The notes: generated by a model from the sequence alone, not told the origin. A DNA stretch of 64,000 nucleotides from Gammaproteobacteria bacterium (GCA_019652555.1 BPAJ01000001.1:272762-336761), one strand, 5' to 3'. Counted from the first letter of the stretch, positions 27,502 through 41,212 are shown. A program made the numbers and translations.

Positions 27502-29871
27502 TTAAGTAGTACTTTTGGAAAGTTCTTTCAGCCAATTTGGCTCTAAAAACTTATTGGCATCTTTTTCTAATCGTTGAGTTATTCTGGTGGGATAAAGCAT
27601 TCCCTTATCATCCTCGCGGACATATTTATTTTCTATTAACCGATTTAAGAAAACATCAAACATCCATTTTTCAGAAAATTCTGGAGTCAGTCTTGCTTGA
27701 GTTTTTTCTAAATTTTTAAGTATTTCTAGAGAATTTCTTTCCAATTCATTTTTTGAAATATGTTCTGCTGAATTTTTCCATAATTGAGAAATCAAAACGT
27801 AAAATCTATCAATGGATGGTTGGACAAGTTTTCCCAGCGATTGAGTTTCATAAAACTCCCTTGATTTGAAATCAGGTCTCTTGTAATTATTGGAATCTTC
27901 AAGAATGAGATTTTTATTTATAAGTTTGTTTAGCTTTAAGTTAATTAATTGATCCAAATCTGCTTCATCCCATTTAAGAAAAAATTCTTCTTTTAAAAAG
28001 GGATAAATCATTTTTATGGACTGCAACAAATCTTCCTTAATGATTTCTTTTTGGTACTGAAAAAAACCGCATATTAGTGACTCAAAAATAAGTAGGTGAG
28101 AAATATTATTTCTGTAAAAGCTAAGCTTAGCCGCCTCTAAATTTGTCAAAGAAATTCTGTCGTTTATGTCTTCCTTAGAAAGGAAACCTAACTTTCTCAT
28201 TTGATCAATTATCTCTTCTCCAGTTTTTTCACAAATCAAAGTTTTGGCAGAATATTTATCTTCTACAAGCAAGGACTTCAACAATTCAATTCTTGAAACA
28301 AGTTCTCGATTTGAAATCGAGAAACCATCACTATTTAAAATTGCCAGAGAAAACAATGCGGTAGAAGTCACAACAGTTGAATCGTTGATAGTAGTCATGA
28401 TTTTCTTACCTAGAACGGGAGTAACTTTAAAGAGCCAATCCTTCTCAGATGAGTAGTCACTCAGTGGATATTCTTTTAACAGGGCATTCAAATTTATCGG
28501 TTCTCCAAATTGCAAATAAGCCTCTCCAAGATAATTTCTGAAATCTCTAAATACCGAAAAGATATCTTTTAAATTCTCTTTTTTCTTCTCTGCACCCATT
28601 ACTTCGTTGATATAAGAATTTCCTTCAAGGACTTTTTCATAATTAATAGAAATTGGTACGAAACTAACTTGTTTTTCATCCATACCCAAGAAGGATCTGA
28701 GAATCATCGAAATAATTCCAGGTCTTGGCGGCATTAATTTTCCCGATCTAGATCTTCCTCCTTCAGGAAAAAATTCTATCGAATGTCCTCTTTGCATTAA
28801 TTTTTTTAAATGCTCATAAAACACTACTGAGTAAAGACGATTGTTGCTAAAAGAGCGCCTCATAAAAAAAGCTCCTCCTTTTCTCAAGAGTGGACCAACC
28901 AGCGGTAAATTTAAATTTTTACCAGCAACGATTTGAGGCAGCATCAAATCTTTGTAGTAAAGCAAATAAGATAAAGCTAGATAATCGATATGGGAACGAT
29001 GACAAGGTGAAAAAATTAGAGAGGTACTCGGCGCAATTTTTCTAATCTCTTCAAAATTTAATACCTCCAAGTTCTCATATCTCGAGTTCCAAAACCAAGT
29101 TAGGGCTCTATCGTAAAGATAGATAAATGGATAAGACATATCCGAGCAAATTTCCCATACATATTTACTAGCTTTTTTTTGTAATTTAGTTGATTTTTTT
29201 TGACTGCCCTCAGATTCAGATTCAATATAACTTTTAATCGAATGAGAATTTAAAATGCTAGTCACCAATGTTCTTCTATTGGAAATATCCGGTCCTAAGT
29301 GAGCTTTTCGATTTTGTCTGAATCTAGCTCTCAAAAGCCTTTCAGTTTTTAAAACAAGATTTTTATCTGATTCGGGACTGTTGAAAATATCGTCTACTTC
29401 AAGGGGTTTGTGAAAAAATATTTTCACATTTCTACCATTAAAAAAAAGTTTGAATAAATTTCTAATAAAACTGGTTCCCTCCCAAGATTCTCTAAATAAA
29501 AGCTTGAGCCAGTTATCTTGCCGTTCTGGCGATTTTCCCCAAAAAACATCTACAGGGATGATGATCGCTTTTTTTGAAAAATTTCGATTCTCAGCAAGGA
29601 TGCCTAATTCTTTTGGATGCATCCTTTTTGGAGTTTGCCAGGGAAATTTTCTTTTTGGATTTCTAATTTGAAAATAATTTTTCTTAATAGGAGATTTTTC
29701 ATTTTTTAATTTAAGTTCAGTTAAATTATTTTGCTTAGTAAGGATTTTTAAAGCCTGATAATCTATTCTTGAGGTTGAGGAAAGCGCGTAGATAATATCT
29801 TCATTTTTCAAGAGTAATTCGGTTTTTTTCGATTCACTTTCGTGATTGGCTTTTATTAGAAAATTAAACAT
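27502..29871 (-). CDS. plsB: glycerol-3-phosphate 1-O-acyltransferase
   Basis: 789 aa. HRSHIDY (HX4D) and FFPEGGRSRSGK acyltransferase blocks. Confidence 0.9.
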   Translation of the reverse strand: MFNFLIKANHESESKKTELLLKNEDIIYALSSTSRIDYQALKILTKQNNLTELKLKNEKSPIKKNYFQIRNPKRKFPWQTPKRMHPKELGILAENRNFSKKAIIIPVDVFWGKSPERQDNWLKLLFRESWEGTSFIRNLFKLFFNGRNVKIFFHKPLEVDDIFNSPESDKNLVLKTERLLRARFRQNRKAHLGPDISNRRTLVTSILNSHSIKSYIESESEGSQKKSTKLQKKASKYVWEICSDMSYPFIYLYDRALTWFWNSRYENLEVLNFEEIRKIAPSTSLIFSPCHRSHIDYLALSYLLYYKDLMLPQIVAGKNLNLPLVGPLLRKGGAFFMRRSFSNNRLYSVVFYEHLKKLMQRGHSIEFFPEGGRSRSGKLMPPRPGIISMILRSFLGMDEKQVSFVPISINYEKVLEGNSYINEVMGAEKKKENLKDIFSVFRDFRNYLGEAYLQFGEPINLNALLKEYPLSDYSSEKDWLFKVTPVLGKKIMTTINDSTVVTSTALFSLAILNSDGFSISNRELVSRIELLKSLLVEDKYSAKTLICEKTGEEIIDQMRKLGFLSKEDINDRISLTNLEAAKLSFYRNNISHLLIFESLICGFFQYQKEIIKEDLLQSIKMIYPFLKEEFFLKWDEADLDQLINLKLNKLINKNLILEDSNNYKRPDFKSREFYETQSLGKLVQPSIDRFYVLISQLWKNSAEHISKNELERNSLEILKNLEKTQARLTPEFSEKWMFDVFLNRLIENKYVREDDKGMLYPTRITQRLEKDANKFLEPNWLKELSKSTT

Positions 29872-29956
29872 TAGAAGTTATTCTTTCTTTATGGTGATAA
29901 AATGCGGATTTTAACAAAACAAATCTTATTTTTTTTGAATTTTACCTTGTAATATA

Positions 29957-30042
29957 GCCGGAGTGGCGGAATTGGTAGACGCGTTCGATTCAAAATCGAG
30001 TGCCCACAAGGCGTGAGAGTTCGAGTCTCTCCTCCGGCACCA
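29957..30042 (+). tRNA. tRNA-Leu (anticodon CAA)
   Basis: Hand-folded. Acceptor GCCGGAG/CTCCGGC, anticodon loop TTCAAAA, long variable arm, GTTCGAGTC T-loop and encoded CCA. Confidence 0.9.
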
Positions 30043-30056
30043 AAGGAGAAGTTAAT

Positions 30057-30371
30057 ATGAAAGAAACCGAAATAGTCATGGCCCAACAAGCTCCAAGTTT
30101 TTTTGGCCCGCAATTAATTTTGTTAATTGGTTTTGTCGCCATAATGTATTTTTTAATCATCAGGCCGCAAAACAAAAGGCTCAAAGCTCAAAAAGAAATG
30201 ATTGAGTCACTCTCTGTAGGAGATGAAGTTATTGCTTCGGGCGGTATGGTCTGTGTAATTACAAAGATGAATGATGATTTTTTAACCGTTCGAGCTAATG
30301 ACACAGTTCTTACAATCCAGCGAGAATCTGTAAGTAACGTTTTGCCTAAAGGAACAATTAAATCTCTCTAA
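30057..30371 (+). CDS. yajC: preprotein translocase subunit YajC
   Basis: One TM followed by IIRPQNKR and GDEVIASGGM motifs. ATG 30057 has AAGGAG just upstream. The track ORF start (30000) lies inside the tRNA. Confidence 0.9.
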   Translation: MKETEIVMAQQAPSFFGPQLILLIGFVAIMYFLIIRPQNKRLKAQKEMIESLSVGDEVIASGGMVCVITKMNDDFLTVRANDTVLTIQRESVSNVLPKGTIKSL

Positions 30372-30374
30372 AAA

Positions 30375-32195
30375 GTGCTCAGATTTCAGCTCTGGAAAAT
30401 AATAATAATATTGTTTGTCATTACCATTGGCATTACTTATGCCTTGCCTAATTTTTATCCGCCAAGTCCAGCAATTCAAATCACCTTGGATAGTTCTTTG
30501 GGAAAAATATCTCCTAATATTGCGAAACGAATCGAACAACTAGCAACAGAAACAGAAATCAGTTTCTCCTCCAATCTTGCTGAAGATCTTGATGGATATG
30601 ACTCAATTTTATTTAAAGCAGAGAATTATCAAGATCAAGTTAAGCTCAAAGAATATTTAGAACAAAACCTAGAGAGAGAATTTGTAATAGCTTTGAACTT
30701 AGCTCCAAATACTCCTGCCTGGTTATCAGATATTCAAGCTTCGCCAATGAAATTAGGCTTAGACCTTAGAGGAGGAGTTCATTTTTTAATGGAAGTAGAT
30801 TCCGAGTTACTCATTTCAACTCGCTTAGAATCCTATTTGGCTGATATCAAAAGAAAACTCAGAGAAGAGCGAATTGGAATTAGTCGTTCTGAAATTACTG
30901 ATAACAGAATAATTTTTACTACCAGAACGGATGCTACAGATCAGTTAGACGACTATTTGAAAAGCAACATTGATCTTGAGTATAGAAAGCAGGACAACAA
31001 TCAATTTATTGTCGAGTACAACGAACAAGGTCTTGATGATTTAATAGATTACGCAGTTTCCCAAAATTTAGTGACTCTAAGAAATAGAGTTAATGAGCTT
31101 GGAATCTCCGAGCCTGTCGTAGTTCGTCAGGGAAAAAATAGAATTTCTGTTCAACTTCCAGGTGTCCAAGATACAGCTGAAGCTAAAAAAATCATTGGAA
31201 AAACTGCAAATTTAGAGTTTCGTCTTGAAGCTGAATCCAATAGTTTGCTATCTAGAACAGATCAATTTGATTTTTCCGGACAACGCGTGAGGTTATTGAA
31301 GCAGGTCATCATTACCGGTGACAAAGTAGCAGATGCCAGCGTTGGTTATGATGAAAGTGGGTTTCCACAAGTAAATATTTCTTTAGACGGCGAGGGCGGA
31401 ACAAAAATGCATCGTTCAACTCGAAATAATGTGGGCAGAAAGATGGCTGTAATTTTTGTTGAACGCAAAATCAAAACATCCAATACGAGCAATGAAATAG
31501 AAAGTTACTTTGATAAAAGAATCATCAGCTTAGCAACCATTCAATCAGCTCTTGCAAACCAATTTAGAATTACCGGCTTGGATAGTCCCAATGCAGCCTC
31601 TGAGTTGGCCTTGCTTCTGAGGGCGGGAGCGTTAGCTGCGCCGATGAATTTTGTTGAAGAAGGCACAGTTGGCCCATCTTTAGGAGCTGATAATATTCGC
31701 GTTGGAGTGCAATCTTTAATACTAGGACTTTCTTTAGTTCTGATTTTTATGATCTTTTACTACAAAGTTTTTGGTGTCATTGCCAATATTGCAGTTGCAT
31801 TAAATATTGTTTTGATTAGTGCCATTATGTCAATTTTATCAGCAACCTTAACGTTACCCGGCATTGCAGGAATTGTTTTGACAATCGGAATGGCAGTAGA
31901 TGCAAATGTCTTAATTTTCTCCAGAATCAAAGAAGAGTTGAAAAATAGACTTAAACCTTTAGATGCAATAAATGCGGGATACGATCGAGCATACATAACT
32001 ATTGTAGATGCAAATTTAACTACTTTAATCGTAGCACTGATTCTTTACACGATTGGCACAGGACCGGTTCAAGGCTTTGCGATTACCTTATCGGTTGGAA
32101 TTTTGACCTCAATGTTTACTGCTATCTTGGTTACTAGATTTTTAGTTTGGTTAATTTATCGAAATCGAAAAAATCTCGATACGCTCTGGATATAA
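30375..32195 (+). CDS. secD: protein translocase subunit SecD
   Basis: 606 aa with a large periplasmic domain and a C-terminal 6-TM SecD/F domain. GTG start. Confidence 0.95.
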   Translation: MLRFQLWKIIIILFVITIGITYALPNFYPPSPAIQITLDSSLGKISPNIAKRIEQLATETEISFSSNLAEDLDGYDSILFKAENYQDQVKLKEYLEQNLEREFVIALNLAPNTPAWLSDIQASPMKLGLDLRGGVHFLMEVDSELLISTRLESYLADIKRKLREERIGISRSEITDNRIIFTTRTDATDQLDDYLKSNIDLEYRKQDNNQFIVEYNEQGLDDLIDYAVSQNLVTLRNRVNELGISEPVVVRQGKNRISVQLPGVQDTAEAKKIIGKTANLEFRLEAESNSLLSRTDQFDFSGQRVRLLKQVIITGDKVADASVGYDESGFPQVNISLDGEGGTKMHRSTRNNVGRKMAVIFVERKIKTSNTSNEIESYFDKRIISLATIQSALANQFRITGLDSPNAASELALLLRAGALAAPMNFVEEGTVGPSLGADNIRVGVQSLILGLSLVLIFMIFYYKVFGVIANIAVALNIVLISAIMSILSATLTLPGIAGIVLTIGMAVDANVLIFSRIKEELKNRLKPLDAINAGYDRAYITIVDANLTTLIVALILYTIGTGPVQGFAITLSVGILTSMFTAILVTRFLVWLIYRNRKNLDTLWI

Positions 32196-32196
32196 A

Positions 32197-33096
32197 ATGC
32201 AAATAAACTTCATGCGACCAAGGAAGATAGCCTCAGCGTTATCAATTTTACTGGTTGTCCTTTCAATTTTTTCGCTTTCTTTTAAAGGATTGAATGCTGG
32301 ATTGGATTTTACCGGTGGAACTTTGATTGAGATCAAGTTGTCACAATCAACCAACTTAGAAGAAATCAGAGAAGTGCTTAGCTCTAAATTAGAAGATGAT
32401 TTTCAGGTTTCTTATTTTGGTTCAGAGCAGGATGTTCTGATTAAGATTCCAGGAGGCTCAGAAAACAACTTGTCAGATGAGATAGTTGCTGCATTGAAAA
32501 ATTCATTTCAGTTTGATTTGAGACGTAAGGATTTTATCGGTCCGCAAATAGGTGAAGAATTACGAGATCAAGGAGGTCTGGGGATACTAGCAGCGATGTT
32601 GGTAATGATGGTCTACATCATGTTTAGATTTCAGTTTAAGTTTGCCATCGGAGCTCTCTTAGCTCTCGTTCATGATGTCTTGATAGTATTAGGCTTTTTC
32701 TCAATATTTTATATCGGTTTTAACTTGACTGTACTAGCTGCCATATTGGCAGTAATTGGTTACTCCCTTAATGACACAATAGTAGTTTCAGACCGAATTA
32801 GAGAGAATTATCGAAGGAAGAGAAAATCAGATAATGTAGATGTCATCAACAGATCCTTAAATCAAATGTTAGGAAGAACTTTAATCACCTCTTTAACAAC
32901 TTTGTTGGTTCTATTTGCACTGCTAATTTTGGGTGGAGATTTCATTCAGAATTTTGCCATTGCTTTAATATGCGGCGTCATTGTTGGTACTTATTCATCA
33001 ATTTATGTTCTTTGTAATAATTTAATTTTAATGAATTTAAATTTTGAGGATCTAGCCATCAAAAAGAGCGAAACTTATGATGATGGCATGCCATAA
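32197..33096 (+). CDS. secF: protein translocase subunit SecF
   Basis: GLDFTGGT motif and the SecD/F membrane domain. Confidence 0.95.
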   Translation: MQINFMRPRKIASALSILLVVLSIFSLSFKGLNAGLDFTGGTLIEIKLSQSTNLEEIREVLSSKLEDDFQVSYFGSEQDVLIKIPGGSENNLSDEIVAALKNSFQFDLRRKDFIGPQIGEELRDQGGLGILAAMLVMMVYIMFRFQFKFAIGALLALVHDVLIVLGFFSIFYIGFNLTVLAAILAVIGYSLNDTIVVSDRIRENYRRKRKSDNVDVINRSLNQMLGRTLITSLTTLLVLFALLILGGDFIQNFAIALICGVIVGTYSSIYVLCNNLILMNLNFEDLAIKKSETYDDGMP

Positions 33097-33131
33097 AAAA
33101 AAGGGAGGCCCGAAGACCTCCCTAATTTTTT
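33095..33131. terminator. bidirectional rho-independent terminator (secF / small ORF)
   Basis: GGGAGGCC-cgaa-GACCTCCC hairpin (33103-33122), flanked by an A8 run on one side and a T-run on the other. Confidence 0.8.
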
Positions 33132-33144
33132 AACTATTCCTCAA

Positions 33145-33309
33145 TTAAGCAGAATGTTTTACGCCACGGTAAACACCGTTTTGTAACTTTCCTTGCTTAT
33201 CTGACTCAATAGCATCATGCTTTACGCCTCTGTAAACGCCCGGTTGAGTATTTTTGTTCTCAACGTGAAGGTTGTTTTCAGTGACTTTGATACCTCTGTA
33301 AGTAGACAT
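33145..33309 (-). CDS. 54-aa YRG-repeat micro-protein (DUF4278-like), not in ORF track
   Basis: My translation is MSTYRGIKVTENNLHVENKNTQPGVYRGVKHDAIESDKQGKLQNGVYRGVKHSA*. GGAGG lies 4 nt upstream of the ATG. A terminator follows immediately downstream and a riboswitch-like element lies upstream. Confidence 0.65.
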   Translation of the reverse strand: MSTYRGIKVTENNLHVENKNTQPGVYRGVKHDAIESDKQGKLQNGVYRGVKHSA

Positions 33310-33370
33310 ATCGCCTCCAGTTTTCGTTTCGATTATGTTTCATGTGCCTCACGGCATACACCCTCGTAAC

Positions 33371-33504
33371 GCGTTCCTTCGGTAGATATTCGGTCTCGTT
33401 CCCCATAAAAGGTACTTGCTAGCCTTTCTACACTTTGTGTAGAAAGAGGTTTTCCTATCTTCCTACTTCCGTTCAATGCACTAAAAAAGAGCATTGAATG
33501 AACG
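33371..33504 (-). promoter_or_regulatory. glutamine riboswitch-like aptamer (glnA RNA motif) with enlarged third helix
   Basis: Minus strand reads CGUUCA-[UUCAAUGC..GCAUUGAA]-CGGAAGUAGG...(about 70-nt insert with perfect hairpin 33424-33446)...CUACCGAAGGAACGC. P1 is CGUUC/GAACG. The conserved blocks match the glnA motif core as I remember it. Confidence 0.65.
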
Positions 33505-33547
33505 ATTAATGTGCATTTTATCAAAAAAAAGGGAGAGTTGTAAACTT

Positions 33548-34339
33548 TTAGATAAAAGATTTTTTTATTTCTTGATTAATTGCTTTTACACAAGACATAT
33601 TTCCAGCCACTATGTTGTGCGTTGAGAATACGTCTTCCTCTCCATTAAAGTCATTGATGAAACCTCCGGCTTCTCTTACCAATAGAGCTCCAGCAGCAAA
33701 ATCCCAAACTTTCATTCCATATCCTAAAAAGGCATCAAGTTTTCCTGAAGCAACAAAGGCAAGGTCTAAAGCTGTTGACCCAGTTCTTCGAAGAGTTAAT
33801 GAATTAGCGTAAAGATTTCTTATAAGAGTAAGTTGATCAAACTTAGGTTCTAAGTCAGGACCCCCATGAAAAGAATTACATATCAAAGAGTTTTTTAATC
33901 CTTTAATCTCTGAAACTCTAATTCTAGTTTTGTTACAAAAAGCACCTTTGCCTTTTGAAGCATAATACTCATCATCACGAGCAAGGTCATAAATCAAACC
34001 ATGCTCTATTGAGCCTTTATAGAAACAAGCAATTGAAATTGAATAAAAAGGAAAATCATGAATGAAATTAGTGGTGCCGTCCAAGGGATCTATTACCCAG
34101 TGATAATCAGCATTCTCATTTCCTTGACGACCAGATTCTTCTCCCTCAAAAGAATGATCAGGAAAAGAGGTCTTCAATGTATCTATTATTATGTTCTCTG
34201 CAATACTATCTACTTGAGTTACAAAGTCAGTAGGCCCTTTTTCAAAAACATTTATTTTATCTCTACGTCGAGAAAATTTATGAATTTCTTTTGCAGCAAG
34301 TCTAGCGGCATTTATCGCAATAGTTACTTTCGGTTCCAT
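33548..34339 (-). CDS. suhB: inositol monophosphatase family protein SuhB
   Basis: WVIDPLDGTTNF and the GEESG / WD.AAG motifs. Divergent from trmJ as in E. coli. Confidence 0.9.
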   Translation of the reverse strand: MEPKVTIAINAARLAAKEIHKFSRRRDKINVFEKGPTDFVTQVDSIAENIIIDTLKTSFPDHSFEGEESGRQGNENADYHWVIDPLDGTTNFIHDFPFYSISIACFYKGSIEHGLIYDLARDDEYYASKGKGAFCNKTRIRVSEIKGLKNSLICNSFHGGPDLEPKFDQLTLIRNLYANSLTLRRTGSTALDLAFVASGKLDAFLGYGMKVWDFAAGALLVREAGGFINDFNGEEDVFSTHNIVAGNMSCVKAINQEIKKSFI

Positions 34340-34372
34340 GGTGTTTTAAAAAAAGAATTGTAAACTATTAAA

Positions 34373-35116
34373 GTGTCTGATTCTTCACTTAAAAATAAAA
34401 TTGAATTCATTTTGGTTGAGCCCTCTCATCCTGGAAATATTGGAGCTTCCGCGAGAGCTATTAAAAATATGGGATTTCAAAATCTTACTTTGATAAATCC
34501 AAAAGATTTTCCTAATGATGAATCTTTTTACAGAGCCAAAGGAGCAAAGGACATATTGGAGAATGTAAAGATTTATCAAGATCTAACTGATTCTTTAAAA
34601 GATGCTACTTTAATTTTCGGTACTAGTGCAAGAACCAGAACAATTCCATGGCCCACAAAAAACTCATCAGAATTAAGTGAGATTTTGAAAAAAGGTCTAG
34701 AAAATATCAACGTAAAAATTTGCTTTGTTTTTGGAAGAGAAATTAGCGGACTTAGTAATGAAGAACTGCAGATGTGTGACTATCATATAAAAATTCCAAC
34801 CGATGAAGATTTTTCTTCTTTAAATTTGTCTCACGCGGTTCAAATAATTTCTTATGTATTGAAAATGGAAATAGATAATATTGATTCAATACCAGAAATA
34901 ATAGATGAGACTCCAACCTTTGAAGATAATGAATACCTAATTGAACATTTTGATAAGGTCATGAAAAAAATTGATTTTTATGATCAGGAAAATCCTAAAC
35001 AAGTAAAAACTAGGGTTCGGAGATTAATCAAACGTTTGCAACCTGATAAATTAGAAATGGGTATCCTTAGAGGTTTTTTGTCTAAGATAGAACAAATACT
35101 TAACAAAAAAAATTAG
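34373..35116 (+). CDS. trmJ: tRNA (cytidine/uridine-2'-O)-methyltransferase TrmJ (SpoU/TrmH class)
   Basis: SpoU motifs (EPSHPGNIGASARA; FGREISGLSNEE; IPT...SLNLSHAV). Conserved suhB neighbourhood. Confidence 0.85.
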   Translation: MSDSSLKNKIEFILVEPSHPGNIGASARAIKNMGFQNLTLINPKDFPNDESFYRAKGAKDILENVKIYQDLTDSLKDATLIFGTSARTRTIPWPTKNSSELSEILKKGLENINVKICFVFGREISGLSNEELQMCDYHIKIPTDEDFSSLNLSHAVQIISYVLKMEIDNIDSIPEIIDETPTFEDNEYLIEHFDKVMKKIDFYDQENPKQVKTRVRRLIKRLQPDKLEMGILRGFLSKIEQILNKKN

Positions 35117-35141
35117 TCTGATAAAATCATTTTTTTTCTGT

Positions 35142-35216
35142 GTCCCCTTCGTCTAGCGGTTAGGACACCGGGTTTTCATCTCGGCAACAGGGGTTCGATC
35201 CCCCTAGGGGACGCCA
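35142..35216 (+). tRNA. tRNA-Glu (anticodon UUC)
   Basis: Acceptor GTCCCCT/AGGGGAC, anticodon loop TTTTCAT, GTTCGATCC T-loop and encoded CCA. Confidence 0.9.
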
Positions 35217-35394
35217 GAAAATACTCCGTTAATCCTTAATCAAACTGCCCATACTTGGTGCAAATTTAATTTAAAATTATCAAGTTTTGAAAACTTTTAG
35301 TGCAAAAACACGTTTTTTTTGTAATTTATCACCAAAAAACTTTTATTTACATCGCTCTATAATTCATGGAATTAATCTTTAATTAGGTGAAGAT

Positions 35395-35751
35395 ATGAAA
35401 CTTTTAACAATTGTTGTTAAGCCTTCTAGATCTGATGGGGTCAAGAGAGCTTTATCTACAATTGGTACTGGTGGAGCTACTATTGTTTCTGCCCAGGGTT
35501 TTGGAACTCAGAAAGGTCATTCTGAAACATACCGTGGTGCAAGTTATGAAGTAGATACAAAACCTAAAACGATGTTCAAAGTTGCTTGTAAAGACGATGA
35601 TGTCGAAAACATTATCAGAGCGGTGCGAGAAGTCGCAAATACCGGCGAGATTGGTGATGGCAAGATTTTTGTAACAGAACTTAACGAAGTCGTTCGAATC
35701 AGAACAGGAGAAACTGGTGAGGACGCTATAAAGGAGAATATAAATGAGTGA
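35395..35751 (+). CDS. glnK: nitrogen regulatory protein P-II
   Basis: P-II fold with T-loop GFGTQKGHSETYRGASY (Tyr51 equivalent present). Overlaps amtB by 8 nt. Confidence 0.85.
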   Translation: MKLLTIVVKPSRSDGVKRALSTIGTGGATIVSAQGFGTQKGHSETYRGASYEVDTKPKTMFKVACKDDDVENIIRAVREVANTGEIGDGKIFVTELNEVVRIRTGETGEDAIKENINE

Positions 35752-36970
35752 ATTAGAGTATGCCTTAAATACTTTTTATCTATTGATCTCTGGAGCTTTC
35801 GTAATGTGGATGGCTGCAGGTTTCACTATGCTAGAGGCTGGTTTAGTTAGAGCTAAGAACGTATCTGAAATTGTTACTAAGAACTTAGGTCTTTATTCAA
35901 TTGCGTGTGTCATGTACTTGGTATGTGGCTTCTTTTTGATGTATCCAGGCGATAGCGTTTACAACGCATATTTCCCAATGCTAGGTAGCACATGGGGAAT
36001 GTCTTTAGACGGTTTAACTTTTAATACGGATTTAGGTTATTCAGATGCAGCTGACTTTTTCTTCCAGGTTGTTTTCGTTGCTACTGCAATGTCAATCATT
36101 TCTGGTGCTGTAGCTGAAAGAATGAAACTTATACCTTTTTTCCTATTTGCAATCGTCTTAACAGGATTTATTTATCCAGTTCAAGGTTACTGGAAATGGG
36201 GTGGCGGATGGTTAGATGCTATCGGCTACACTGATTTTGCAGGTTCAGGAGTGGTACACCTTTGTGGTGCTGCTGCTGCTTTAGCTGCTGTAATCATCTT
36301 AGGTCCTAGATCTGGAAAATACTCTGCTGATGGGTCAGTCAGAGTTATGAGAGGTTCGAACATTCCAATTGCAGCTTTAGGTGCACTAATCCTATGGTTA
36401 GGTTGGTTTGGTTTCAACGGTGGATCTCAACTTGCAGTAAATGATGCTGCAAATGCAAATGCCGTTGCTCAAGTTTTCCTAAACACTAATGCTTCTGCAG
36501 CAGGTGGTGTAATAGGAGCTTTACTAATTGCTAAAGTCTTAACTGGTAAGGCTGATGTAACAATGGCAATAAATGGAGCCATTGCAGGTTTGGTAGCAAT
36601 CACAGCTGCACCTGACACTCCATCTGGTGGGCTAGCTACCATCATTGGATTCATAGGTGGAATCATTGTTTACTTCTCAGTTGTTTTCTTAGACACAGTA
36701 TTGAAAATAGATGATCCAGTAGGTGCTATTTCTGCTCACGGTACAGTAGGTATATGGGGAATCATGGCAACTCCGCTTTCTGGTGCAGGAGCTTTTGGTA
36801 CTCAAGCAATTGGAGCTATCTCAATATTCCTTTGGGCTTTCATAACTAGTGCAGGAACACTACTTGTTCTAAATGCAATACTTGGTTTGAGACCTTCAGA
36901 GGAAGAAGAAACTTCAGGATTAGACGCTTCAGAAATTGGAGTAGAAGCTTACCCTGAATTTAAAGATTAA
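35744..36970 (+). CDS. amtB: ammonium transporter
   Basis: Amt family signatures (DFAGSGVVHLCGA, twin-His context, WGG). 11-TM-like profile. Confidence 0.95.
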   Translation: MSELEYALNTFYLLISGAFVMWMAAGFTMLEAGLVRAKNVSEIVTKNLGLYSIACVMYLVCGFFLMYPGDSVYNAYFPMLGSTWGMSLDGLTFNTDLGYSDAADFFFQVVFVATAMSIISGAVAERMKLIPFFLFAIVLTGFIYPVQGYWKWGGGWLDAIGYTDFAGSGVVHLCGAAAALAAVIILGPRSGKYSADGSVRVMRGSNIPIAALGALILWLGWFGFNGGSQLAVNDAANANAVAQVFLNTNASAAGGVIGALLIAKVLTGKADVTMAINGAIAGLVAITAAPDTPSGGLATIIGFIGGIIVYFSVVFLDTVLKIDDPVGAISAHGTVGIWGIMATPLSGAGAFGTQAIGAISIFLWAFITSAGTLLVLNAILGLRPSEEEETSGLDASEIGVEAYPEFKD

Positions 36971-36990
36971 TTAATTATCCTCCCCCTAAA

Positions 36991-37021
36991 AGCAGGTAAG
37001 GAAACTTACCTGCTTTTTTTA
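36991..37021 (+). terminator. rho-independent terminator after amtB
   Basis: AGCAGGTAAG-gaaa-CTTACCTGCT followed by T7. Confidence 0.85.
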
Positions 37022-37032
37022 TATAATCTCTC

Positions 37033-38061
37033 ATGCCTTTTGTTTTCTTTTCATTATTATTCTTTTCTAGTTTTTCCTTTCTTACAGAAACGAATGAAGA
37101 GCTTACGGTCTCTACCAATCAAAATTGGAACTTTAAGCCTTCTTTAGAAACAATCTCATCTGACGAAATTAGTTTTTTAAACGTTACTCACAACAAAGAA
37201 CTTTTCAATTCTTCAGCAGGTAGTTGGATCAGTAGAGGATCGGGTCAAGAAAGCTTAATTTCCTTAAGATCGCCAGTATTAACTGGTTCAGGAGCTTGCG
37301 GGTCTTTCTTGATTTTGGAGGATGGTTTGCCAATCAGGCCAGCCGGATTTTGTAACGTCAACAATCTTTTTGAAGTTTCCACAAACTTAGCCTCTAAGGT
37401 TGAAATTTTAAAAGGCCCATCTAGTGCCAGGTTTGGTGGTAATGCTTTGCACGGGGCAATCAATTTTCAATCACTTGAAATTGATGCAAATAATTATCTA
37501 AAGACAGAAGTAAATGATGACGAGTCTTTCAAAGCATCTTTTCAATATCAGGAAGCAACCAATTGGTCCTTGGGAATTGCATTAGACAGAGATCAAGGAT
37601 TTAGAGATTCCAGTGGGTTTGACCAACAAAAATTAGCCTTTAAATCAAAAAATAATATTAAGAACTGGCAAGCTACAACACTTTTAAACTTAACCAACCT
37701 CAATCAAGAAACGGCAGGTTATATCAGCTCTTATAAATCAAGTTTAAGATTAACGAATGTCAATCCAGAAGCCTATCGGGATGCTAAGTCATTGCGCTTA
37801 AATACGCTTTTAACTCAAATTAAAGATAATTTTGAATTTCAGCTAAGACCTTACCTTAGGCACAGCAAGATGGATTTCATCCAGCACTATTTGCCTGGCA
37901 AGCCTTTAGAAAAAAACAGCCAAACCAGTTCGGGTCTAAATTTTTTAATGGACGTAAAAAGCTTTCCTAACCACAAACTTTCTTTTGGAATTAATTTTGA
38001 AATGGCCAATTCAATTAGAAGAATTTCAGGAAAACAAACTAACAACCAGTTCAGCTTTTAA
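37033..38061 (+). pseudogene. TonB-dependent receptor, fragment 1 of 3 (signal peptide, plug, start of barrel)
   Basis: Plug-domain motifs (VEILKGPSSARFGGNALHGAINF). Reading continues in another frame from about 38010. Confidence 0.75.
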
Positions 38062-38797
38062 CAATGCGGTAAGGCCTCAAGGCCTACATTACGACTTTGA
38101 AGTCGACACAAATTTATTTGCTGTATTTTTGTCTCATGAATTTATAACTGATGATGATTTTAAAATTTTTTCAAATGTTAGAACTGAGAGACTCAATTAC
38201 GATTACGATAATCTGATGCTTGACGGCAGAACCAGAGCCGATGGCTCGGCATGCGGATTTGGCGGATGTTATTACTCAAGACCTGCTGATACTGATATTT
38301 CATTTTCTGATAATTCTTTTAGGTTTGGTTTTTCCAAGAAAGTAATGACAAATGAATTCTTTTTGCAGTTCAGCAAAGGTTTTAGACCACCTCAAATAAA
38401 TGAGCTTTTTAGACTACAAAAAGCACAAACTTTGGCGGACTTAAATTCTGAAAAAATAGATTCCCTAGAATTTGGAATTCTTTCAACTGGAGATAACTTT
38501 TTAAATAAATTTGTTCTATTTTCTTCAAAGAAAAATAATTACATCTATAAAGATAATGATGCATCAACTGTAGCTGGAGGAAAATCAAAACATCAAGGCA
38601 TTGAAATTTCTGGGTCAGTGGATGTAACTCCTATGCTAATGATCAAATATGCTTGGAGCTTTGCTGAACATCTTTATGATTATTCCTTTTCATCCATTGG
38701 AGTTTATGAAGGTAATTTGATTGATACGGCGCCTAGAGTACAAGGAAGTTTATTTTTTAATATCTTTCCGCTTGAAAAGCTTAACCCTTCAAATTGA
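37985..38797 (+). pseudogene. TonB-dependent receptor, fragment 2 of 3 (barrel)
   Basis: Beta-barrel-like sequence from about QLEEFQENK onward. The frame breaks again near the T6 run at about 38750. Confidence 0.7.
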
Positions 38798-39038
38798 AGA
38801 AGAATATTTAGGCAAATACTTTACCGATCCTGCAAACCAATATAGCTATCCTGGACATTATTTAACCAACTTTAGAGGTTTTTATAATTTGACCTCAAAC
38901 CTTGATATCAACTTCAGTATTCTCAACGTATTCAATAAACGTTATGCCGAACGTGCAGATTACTCCTCTTTTTCTGGACAAAGATATTTTCCAGGTCTTC
39001 CGATACAATGGCGATTCGGATTTAGTTATTCTTTTTAA
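38721..39038 (+). pseudogene. TonB-dependent receptor, fragment 3 of 3 (C-terminal barrel strands)
   Basis: Ends ...FPGLPIQWRFGFSYSF*, the terminal aromatic residue typical of TBDRs. NVFNKRY motif present. Confidence 0.75.
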
Positions 39039-40439: not shown

Positions 40440-40525
40440 AGTTTTTCAAAAATTACGTATATCATCTAGGACATAACTCATTTAGGAGAGTTAATTTATA
40501 AATTAAATCACTTTTGGGAGGATTT

Positions 40526-41212
40526 ATGAGCTATTTAGCTACAAATGATTACGTAGGTATCTCGTTCTGGATTGCGACTGCTATTATGTTAGCGTCGACA
40601 GTATTCTTCTTCGTAGAAAGACAAGACGTATCGGGTAAGTGGAGAACTTCTCTTACCGTTGCTGGTCTTGTTACTGGTATTGCTTTCTGGCATTACCTTT
40701 ACATGAGAGGAATGTGGTCAGACATGGGAGCTTCCCCTACGGTATTTAGATACATTGACTGGTTAATCACAGTACCACTTCAAATCATTGAGTTTTACTT
40801 AATTGTTGCGGCTGTTACGGTTGTAAGTGCAGGTATATTCTGGCGTTTACTTATCGCATCAATAGTAATGCTTGTTGGTGGTTATCTTGGTGAAACTGGA
40901 CTATGGGCACCTTCAGTAGGTTTTGCTGTTGGAATGATTGCTTGGATATACATCATCTATGAAATATTTCTTGGTGAGACTGCTGCAGCCAATGCCTCTA
41001 GTGGAAACTCTGCAAGTCAAAGCGCATTTAACACAATTAAATGGATTGTAACTGTAGGTTGGGCAATTTACCCAGTTGGTTACGCGCTTGGTTACTTCGC
41101 AGGTGGAGTTAATAACGAAGCATTAAACATTGTTTATAACCTTGCTGACTTAATTAACAAAACAGCATTTGGTTTAGCAATTTGGGCAGCTGCTAAAGCA
41201 GATTCAGCTTAG
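40526..41212 (+). CDS. proteorhodopsin, blue-absorbing type (Gln at the position-105 tuning site)
   Basis: RYIDWLITVPLQIIEFYL carries Asp97, Gln105 and Glu108 equivalents (CAA at 40781-40783). FWHY His75 and retinal Lys in DLINKTAFG are present. I start at ATG 40526, preceded by GGGAGGA; there is no signal peptide. Confidence 0.95.
   Translation: MSYLATNDYVGISFWIATAIMLASTVFFFVERQDVSGKWRTSLTVAGLVTGIAFWHYLYMRGMWSDMGASPTVFRYIDWLITVPLQIIEFYLIVAAVTVVSAGIFWRLLIASIVMLVGGYLGETGLWAPSVGFAVGMIAWIYIIYEIFLGETAAANASSGNSASQSAFNTIKWIVTVGWAIYPVGYALGYFAGGVNNEALNIVYNLADLINKTAFGLAIWAAAKADSA

Follow-up and report, generated by a model that had tools for sequence, protein, structure and literature searches.

Judged from its sequence, the minus-strand element at positions 33371-33504 of the window (the whole 64-kb stretch of DNA analysed here) is a genuine member of the type-1 glutamine riboswitch family (RF01739), putatively sensing glutamine and standing before a tiny YRG-repeat gene. 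Its third helix, P3, ends in a conserved junction with the order P3 stem, J1, hairpin A, J2 (..AGCAAGUA), hairpin B and J3, and the features of the whole cassette are collected in Table 1.

Identity and setting of the element

Rfam cmscan matched RF01739 (glutamine riboswitch, glnA motif) at 33368-33506 (-) with 43.4 bits against a gathering score of 35 (E = 3.9e-6), in an alignment that spans the full length of the model (positions 1-53 of 53) and holds 79 nt in place of the model's 6-nt P3 loop. The same family scores 38.5-50.5 bits in 15 related loci. When the whole 64-kb window was scanned with the Rfam 15 covariance models, three tRNAs and RF01739 were found and no further matches, and the pattern of two cores with a gap of 46-106 nt had a single occurrence in the window and none in 100 shuffles of it. 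The original prediction had named two Rfam models for comparison, of which glnA passes its gathering score, as just described, and Downstream-peptide fails: the Downstream-peptide/glutamine-II model RF01704 reached 9.7 bits against a gathering score of 33 (E = 4.8) and covered part of the aptamer only, thus the aptamer in the window is not a glutamine-II member. A permissive Rfam scan of 33290-33520 for other known RNAs in the insert or the tail gave noise only besides RF01739.

The individual aptamer elements had been read accurately at the outset. The proposed P1 helix CGUUC/GAACG is present (33504-33500 with 33376-33372), as is the 8-bp hairpin after it (33498-33472), and the two strands taken for the glnA-motif core, ACGGAAGUAGG and CCGAAGGAACGC, occur exactly in the window, within the element that exceeds the RF01739 gathering score. 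These core strands, which carry the loop-E motif (AGUA/GAA), flank P3 and are invariant in alignments A1-A3. Conservation and covariation of P1 and P2 among relatives had also been proposed as a check, and this, like the other refuting outcomes examined, turned out in favour of the original prediction: P2 does covary, its first four pairs being formed in 26/26 representative leaders with 2-4 pair types each, and so does P3, whereas P1 is kept but invariant in all relatives, so that covariation there is uninformative. The distal pairs of P3 bring AGAUA (33460-33456) opposite UAUCU (33388-33384), beyond an A-A mismatch over two closing G-C pairs, and a duplex is formed in all 26 representatives despite differing sequences (AGAUA/UAUCU, AUAAU/GUUAU, AAAC/GUUU and UAAAGG/CUUUAU); in an unfitted MAFFT alignment, three of the seven P3 pairs were changed on both sides. 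The helices P2 and P3 of the three-way junction are therefore backed by covariation in relatives.

The window is collinear over 8 kb with the SAR86 single-cell genomes AG-422-E19 and AG-913-G18 at 93.6-93.8% nucleotide identity, thus the host is a SAR86 gammaproteobacterium, which agrees with the gammaproteobacterial context that the flanking genes had suggested. The cassette occupies the spacer between suhB and secF. It shares the strand of suhB (33548-34339; a member of the inositol monophosphatase family), which it closely follows, and is convergent with yajC-secD-secF. On the other side of suhB lie trmJ (SpoU methylase), a tRNA-Glu and the glnK-amtB pair, whose proximity had been pointed out and which we located at 35395-36970. 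Homologous suhB-secF spacers, in which conservation was to be expected if the original prediction was right, keep the element in every case, and so do distant relatives. The segment had further been described as visibly G+C-rich; a rise does exist, though a modest one (G+C 0.47-0.48 over 33300-33449, compared with 0.24-0.31 immediately upstream). Elsewhere in the window, a proteorhodopsin gene at 40514-41212 (+; Bac_rhodopsin, E = 1e-46) fits a SAR86 origin, and a TonB-dependent receptor at 37033-39038 (+) is split over three overlapping ORFs in different frames (Plug 37033-38061, beta-barrel 37985-38797 and tail 38721-39038), being either a frameshifted pseudogene or the result of sequencing or assembly errors.

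The novelty implied for a glutamine riboswitch in such a host was overstated. The founding alignment of Weinberg et al. 2010 (glnA.sto) contains a row from GOS, JCVI_SCAF_1096627294440, which is the same locus nearly base for base and spans the stop codon of the upstream gene (suhB in the window), the riboswitch, the mini-ORF and the terminator, and RF01739 has been listed in SAR86 MAGs in a 2025 long-read metagenome paper (PMC12379486). Glutamine riboswitches have also been reported in OM43 and SAR11 myophages in a 2022 paper (PMC9004378), and a 2018 review described them as "restricted but common to cyanobacteria" (PMC6316151). In the 16% of glnA.sto covered, each of the three signature strings of the P3 module occurs at least a dozen times, and three rows were read. 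The basic identification is routine, as an Rfam match with a near-twin in the 2010 seed data, and the gene behind the riboswitch is of a kind usual for this family. Membership of the locus in RF01739 was already known, and what the present analysis adds is the constant link to a YRG mini-ORF and the extension by the P3 junction, P4 and hairpin C (hpC), for which earlier annotation is possible: in the literature apart from Ames & Breaker 2011 and the 2010 consensus-structure line, neither the P3 junction module nor P4-hpC was found described, nor was a YRG mini-ORF of heterotrophs.

The P3 junction, the tail and the mini-gene

An oversized insertion with a perfect 10-bp hairpin at 33424-33446 had been noticed in the third helix. 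There are indeed 79 nt between the cores and the hairpin was found inside this stretch, but the insertion is no oddity of the copy in the window; it is a conserved and structured domain of a large marine subclass. The junction blocks are invariant from SAR86 to phage copies whose mini-proteins are only ~50-63% identical, and J1 together with the next bases, UC, yields ACCUC, which is complementary to the Shine-Dalgarno (SD) sequence. In hairpin A, six of nine pairs were changed on both sides and 96% of cells were paired; in hairpin B all three pairs were changed on both sides (e.g. CC/GG vs GG/CC), and this hairpin is ~20 nt larger in some relatives. Covariation was assessed in an unfitted MAFFT alignment of 20 diverse leaders, in which 90.7% of cells formed standard pairs against 76.3% in shuffles, with 0/500 shuffles reaching the observed value; sliding the partners dropped pairing to 35-51%, and twenty pairs were changed on both sides in the real alignment. 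By our reading, AGUA before and GAA after hairpin B look like the loop-E motif in the core of the aptamer. Hairpin B thus repeats AGUA...GAA, but the idea of a second glutamine aptamer nested in the module was rejected, because no P1-like strand was seen there when the aligned sequences were read. A free-standing motif was likewise rejected: a module-only pattern gave many chance matches in coding DNA of metagenomes, and every metagenome match with the AGC.AGUA signature sat within a glutamine aptamer.

Since P3 is peripheral and tolerates replacement, the 79-nt insert might be viewed as a neutral expansion or a small mobile or repeat element in a tolerant loop, and its length does vary, from 67 to 98 nt overall and between 77, 78 and 79 nt in close orthologues. 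This reading is contradicted by invariant junction sequences, by compensatory changes in both hairpins across dozens of lineages and by a constant position, always in the same RNA, which rule it out so far that we would leave it a very slight chance.

The ~60 nt from the aptamer to the SD match the aptamer in degree of conservation and contain two further helices, P4 and, enclosed by it, hpC. Among 99 distinct leaders, pair 1 of P4 is formed in 99/99, pair 2 also in 99/99 (G-C in 62, A-U in 21 and U-A in 16), pair 3 in 97 and pair 4 in 61. At its base, hpC has a conserved segment, GGGUGU/AUG.AC, which includes tandem G-U pairs, and its upper stem covaries, with 6/10 pairs changed on both sides and 97% of cells paired. 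P4 ends 5 nt before AAAACUGGAGG, and 4 nt separate the SD from the ATG at 33309. Alternative long-range pairings (between J1 ACCU and GGGU of the tail, between GAAACGA of the tail and the 5' strand of P1, and between the region of the start codon and the 3' strand of P3) were dropped, as we read it, because none was conserved across subtypes or none was variable enough.

A sigma-70-like promoter found by consensus scan is predicted to start the transcript a few nt before P1, and the GOS row of the 2010 alignment has the same promoter hexamers. Downstream of the aptamer, the tiny YRG-repeat ORF that had been expected is found at 33145-33309, and its product is MSTYRGIKVTENNLHVENKNTQPGVYRGVKHDAIESDKQGKLQNGVYRGVKHSA. 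Compared with DUF4278 (PF14105), this mini-ORF scores 24.2 bits, just under the cut-off of 25.3 (E = 4.4e-5; 49/54 residues), several of its homologues with 87-94% identity have a precomputed PF14105 match, and a match was also obtained to the phage family PHROG 5049 of unknown function (1.6e-7). For the mini-protein, a search of PDB and NCBIfam gave no match and AlphaFold gave no confident fold (pLDDT 51, pTM 0.19). With a promoter-like site and a terminator-like hairpin, the cassette looks like a transcription unit of its own, and the arrangement of promoter-like site, aptamer, SD, 54-aa YRG ORF and terminator is that of the 5' leader of a DUF4278-like gene. On the coding strand, no terminator-like site was found between the aptamer and the mini-ORF, thus translational control is the economical reading. 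The G+C-rich hairpin at 33102-33123 has T runs on both strands and appears bidirectional, for the convergent secF and mini-ORF.

A 63-aa ORF (33333-33524) also runs over the region, and its frame is open in the window, so that the region might be taken to encode this ORF with an only incidental likeness to an RNA. However, many of the 26 representative homologous leaders are interrupted by stops in every one of the three frames, indels of 1-2 nt fall inside the ORF in close orthologues, and substitutions keep base pairs, which rules out a coding role; the frame is not conserved among homologous leaders, the ORF had rightly been called spurious, and the probability that it is real is practically nil.

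Table 1. Features of the riboswitch and mini-ORF cassette, in order of transcription
Feature	Position	Strand	Basis
Sigma-70-like promoter (predicted): TTTACA, 18-nt spacer, TAAAAT, upstream TG	33515..33544	-	consensus scan, 10/12
Glutamine-I aptamer including P3 extension	33368..33506	-	RF01739, 43.4 bits
P1 5' strand CGUUC, pairs with GAACG 33372-33376	33500..33504	-	Rfam alignment
P2 hairpin, 8 bp UUCAAUGC/GCAUUGAA, 11-nt loop	33472..33498	-	first four pairs covary
Core strand 1, CGGAAGUAGG, holds AGUA side of loop-E motif	33462..33471	-	invariant, alignments A1-A3
P3 stem 5' strand	33455..33461	-	duplex in all representatives
J1 GAAAACC	33448..33454	-	invariant, alignments A1-A3
Hairpin A, 11 bp including closing U-G, contains the 10-bp hairpin	33423..33447	-	covariation
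J2 CUAGCAAGUA, AGC and AGUA invariant	33413..33422	-	alignments A1-A3
Hairpin B (CCU...GGG)	33402..33412	-	covariation
J3 GAACGAGACCGAA, GAGACCGA invariant	33389..33401	-	alignments A1-A3
P3 stem 3' strand UAUCUA	33383..33388	-	duplex in all representatives
Core strand 2, CCGAAGGAACGC, includes P1 3' strand GAACG (33376-33372)	33371..33382	-	invariant
P4 5' strand CGUU, directly 3' of P1, pairs with AACG 33325-33328	33368..33371	-	covariation
Hairpin C (hpC), loop GUGA, enclosed by P4	33337..33363	-	covariation
P4 3' strand AACG	33325..33328	-	covariation
A-rich linker and Shine-Dalgarno AAAACUGGAGG, GGAGG at 33318-33314	33314..33324	-	invariant in 26/26 representatives
54-aa ORF, three YRG(I/V)K repeats, DUF4278-like	33145..33309	-	PF14105, PHROG 5049
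Intrinsic-terminator-like hairpin and T run	33102..33123	-	also an annotated terminator in the 2010 alignment row

Distribution among marine bacteria and viruses

A protein search with the mini-ORF identified 26 database homologues. Fifteen contigs encoding four of these 26 were examined. The neighbours suhB or secF were seen, completely or partly, in eleven of them; a T4-like phage fragment accounts for one more, and three are of other kinds or too short. All 15 contain an RF01739 match of 119-139 nt immediately upstream of the mini-ORF. A scan for loci in which the two core strands stand 46-106 nt apart was made in one genome per species and in IMG/VR, and gave 77 loci in the former and 93 in the latter. 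The signature GAAAACC(U/C)C ... AAGUA ... GAGACCGA was present in 121/186 extracted inserts, which come from 34 records titled SAR86, a further gammaproteobacterial MAG, a Halieaceae MAG and ~70 viral contigs. The remaining inserts form four groups, namely tandem aptamers (SAR86, Alphaproteobacteria and Pelagibacterales), other large-P3 designs (Halieaceae, OM182 and TMED69), long-P3 cyanobacterial copies and a few chance matches. The link with the mini-ORF is invariable: every one of the 120 module-class copies with a complete downstream region is followed by an ORF of 38-59 aa with 2-3 YRG repeats (76 distinct proteins), and the other large-P3 classes likewise precede YRG mini-ORFs.

One of the phage-like copies lies on a metagenome contig (JGI 3300012953; L012, 352-3016), where the riboswitch and YRG mini-ORF stand directly upstream of T4-like genes for tail tube, UvsY and UvsW helicase. 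Neither blastn with the cassette nor tblastn with the phage-type peptide matched any isolate phage in GenBank, thus the viral evidence rests on the IMG/VR contigs and this one metagenome contig with UvsY, UvsW and tail-tube genes.

Glutamine aptamers of other designs were encountered in the same surveys. In two single-cell genomes of Alphaproteobacteria (AG-426-C22, L027 936-1029; AG-447-O15, L029 6367-6465), the genes for an ammonium transporter of 426 aa and a glutamine synthetase of 471 aa are preceded by tandem glutamine aptamers. Tandem short-P3 aptamers in SAR86 MED-G83 (L037 1858-1940), in Pelagibacterales (L056 4306-4393) and at L022, L071, L100 and L118 precede small basic ORFs of 32-43 aa without YRG repeats, which appear to be a different family of regulated mini-genes. 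A large P3 ending in two hairpins with unrelated junction sequences was found in Halieaceae (L035, L038, L053, L059 and L067), in Pseudomonadota MAGs and TMED69 (L019, L025 and L065), in OM182 (L034) and at L047, and L034 and L047 share the tail GAGAAGGGUGU...AAAUCGAAACGAAAACUGGAGG; elaborated P3 junctions thus seem to be a recurrent design in marine Proteobacteria. Two SAR86 single-cell genomes (L080 and L085) align with 28572-37780 of the window at ~90-92% identity through secF; the alignment breaks inside the mini-ORF (33123-33197) and continues beyond at 82-84% identity, and the spacer holds a different type of cassette, with a P3 stem AAAACCU like that of many viral copies and an ORF starting with MYYRGIK. 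The pattern suggests a hot spot for divergence or exchange at the cassette.

Proposed function and alternative readings

The explanation that we favour, and consider probable, is that the element is the glutamine-I leader of an independently promoted and terminated SAR86 gene, in which glutamine would activate translation of a 54-aa peptide that damps nitrogen assimilation. Binding of glutamine would stabilise P1, P4 would stack on P1, and the A-rich linker and SD would remain single-stranded, so that the peptide would be made (ON) under ample nitrogen. Without ligand, masking of the SD would follow, putatively by ACCUC at the boundary of J1 and hairpin A, which is the sole conserved candidate. 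The peptide may in turn damp nitrogen assimilation, possibly by binding glutamine synthetase (GS) as IF17 does. It is by analogy that we propose the ON direction, because the DUF4278 leaders tested to date, those of Synechocystis gifB and Prochlorococcus PMM1846, both switch translation on with glutamine (PMC6212724). In its crystal structure, the glutamine-I aptamer has P3 projecting sideways and away from the ligand, which is bound at the top of P1 (PMC6698751), and an elaborated P3 is thus compatible with binding. As for the peptide, DUF4278 corresponds to the N-terminal part of IF17, which has been reported to be dispensable for IF17 function (PMC6316151); with this and with the PF14105 score below the cut-off, a role in GS inhibition is only a guess.

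The same switch could be wired in the opposite way, with glutamine turning the mini-ORF OFF. In thermodynamic models, enforcing P1 raised the mean SD accessibility over the 26 leaders from 0.49 to 0.66, a weak trend which on average frees the SD, while the window's own leader behaved in the opposite way, its SD being less accessible with P1 enforced (unpaired 0.26) than without constraint (0.61), as OFF control would predict. The predicted probability of pairing between SD and ACCUC is only ~0.1, in 13/26 leaders no other sequence forms a better duplex with the SD region than ACCUC(Y), and since both SD and ACCUC are invariant, covariation is uninformative on their pairing. OFF control would also be the logical role of the glutamine aptamers before glnA and amt in marine Alphaproteobacteria; as the same aptamer class stands there in tandem with OFF logic expected, the direction is not a property of the aptamer. 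On the other hand, both tested DUF4278 leaders are ON, and together with the average effect of enforcing P1 this leads us to regard glutamine-repressed translation as unlikely, and activation by glutamine remains our preferred direction.

The P3 module and P4-hpC may also be thought of as a second functional domain, which might dock a protein or second ligand, or else act as a tertiary clamp to tune the low affinity for glutamine, in which case the leader would integrate more than glutamine. The joining strands GAAAACC, AGC.AGUA and GAGACCGA are invariant from SAR86 to phage, the tandem G-U segment at the base of hpC is conserved, and neither element is explained by any Rfam family, all of which would fit such a domain. 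However, the module was never found outside a glutamine aptamer, and the two parts do not depend on each other: the L099 and L096 types keep the module with a different P4-hpC or with a tail that is almost absent, and L034 and L047 keep the tail with a different P3 insert. Module and tail are thus separable and neither looks like an autonomous aptamer, and we consider a second domain improbable. A wider proposal would hold that the P3 module and P4-hpC form an undescribed and functionally required extension (an embedded anti-SD or a tertiary or protein-binding domain) which defines a proteobacterial and phage subclass, and that the peptides with three YRG repeats are inhibitors of GS or of other steps of nitrogen assimilation, used by SAR86 and marine phages to reprogramme host nitrogen metabolism; taken as a whole, we find this combination doubtful.

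Among known systems, the leader belongs to the same family as glutamine-I riboswitches such as the Synechocystis gifB/IF17 leader, with a near-identical marine metagenome locus in the founding alignment, but it differs from the gifB type in several respects. Its host is SAR86, a gammaproteobacterium, rather than a cyanobacterium; its P3 carries a second three-way junction of ~70-100 nt instead of a short loop; a covarying P4 and a conserved hpC lie between P1 and the SD; and its product is a 54-aa peptide with three YRG repeats, far shorter than IF17. The glutamine-II class (RF01704, PMM1846/yfr6) of Prochlorococcus and marine Synechococcus shares with it the presumed ligand and very short DUF4278 ORFs, and likewise comes from streamlined marine bacteria, where it is an ON switch (PMC6212724); glutamine-II, however, is a pseudoknot, whereas the RNA in the window is a three-way junction. 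Records from Melnitz-like phages, pelagimyophages and SAR86 MAGs also place RF01739 outside cyanobacteria, in streamlined marine bacteria and viruses (PMC9004378, PMC12379486), but these are automated annotations without analysis of the P3 module, P4-hpC or the YRG mini-ORF, and the Melnitz copy has been reported beside ssrA, not beside a DUF4278 gene (PMC9004378).

In SAR86 the cassette of riboswitch and mini-protein is a syntenic feature, and copies of it occur in many viral contigs and in further marine Gammaproteobacteria. With its conserved P3 junction and P4-hpC, it offers a natural case in which to ask how a low-affinity aptamer may be tuned by peripheral domains. Provided that the peptide works as IF17 does, streamlined ocean bacteria would have a general device for nitrogen control in which glutamine sensing by an RNA is coupled to a small protein, and phages would have borrowed it.
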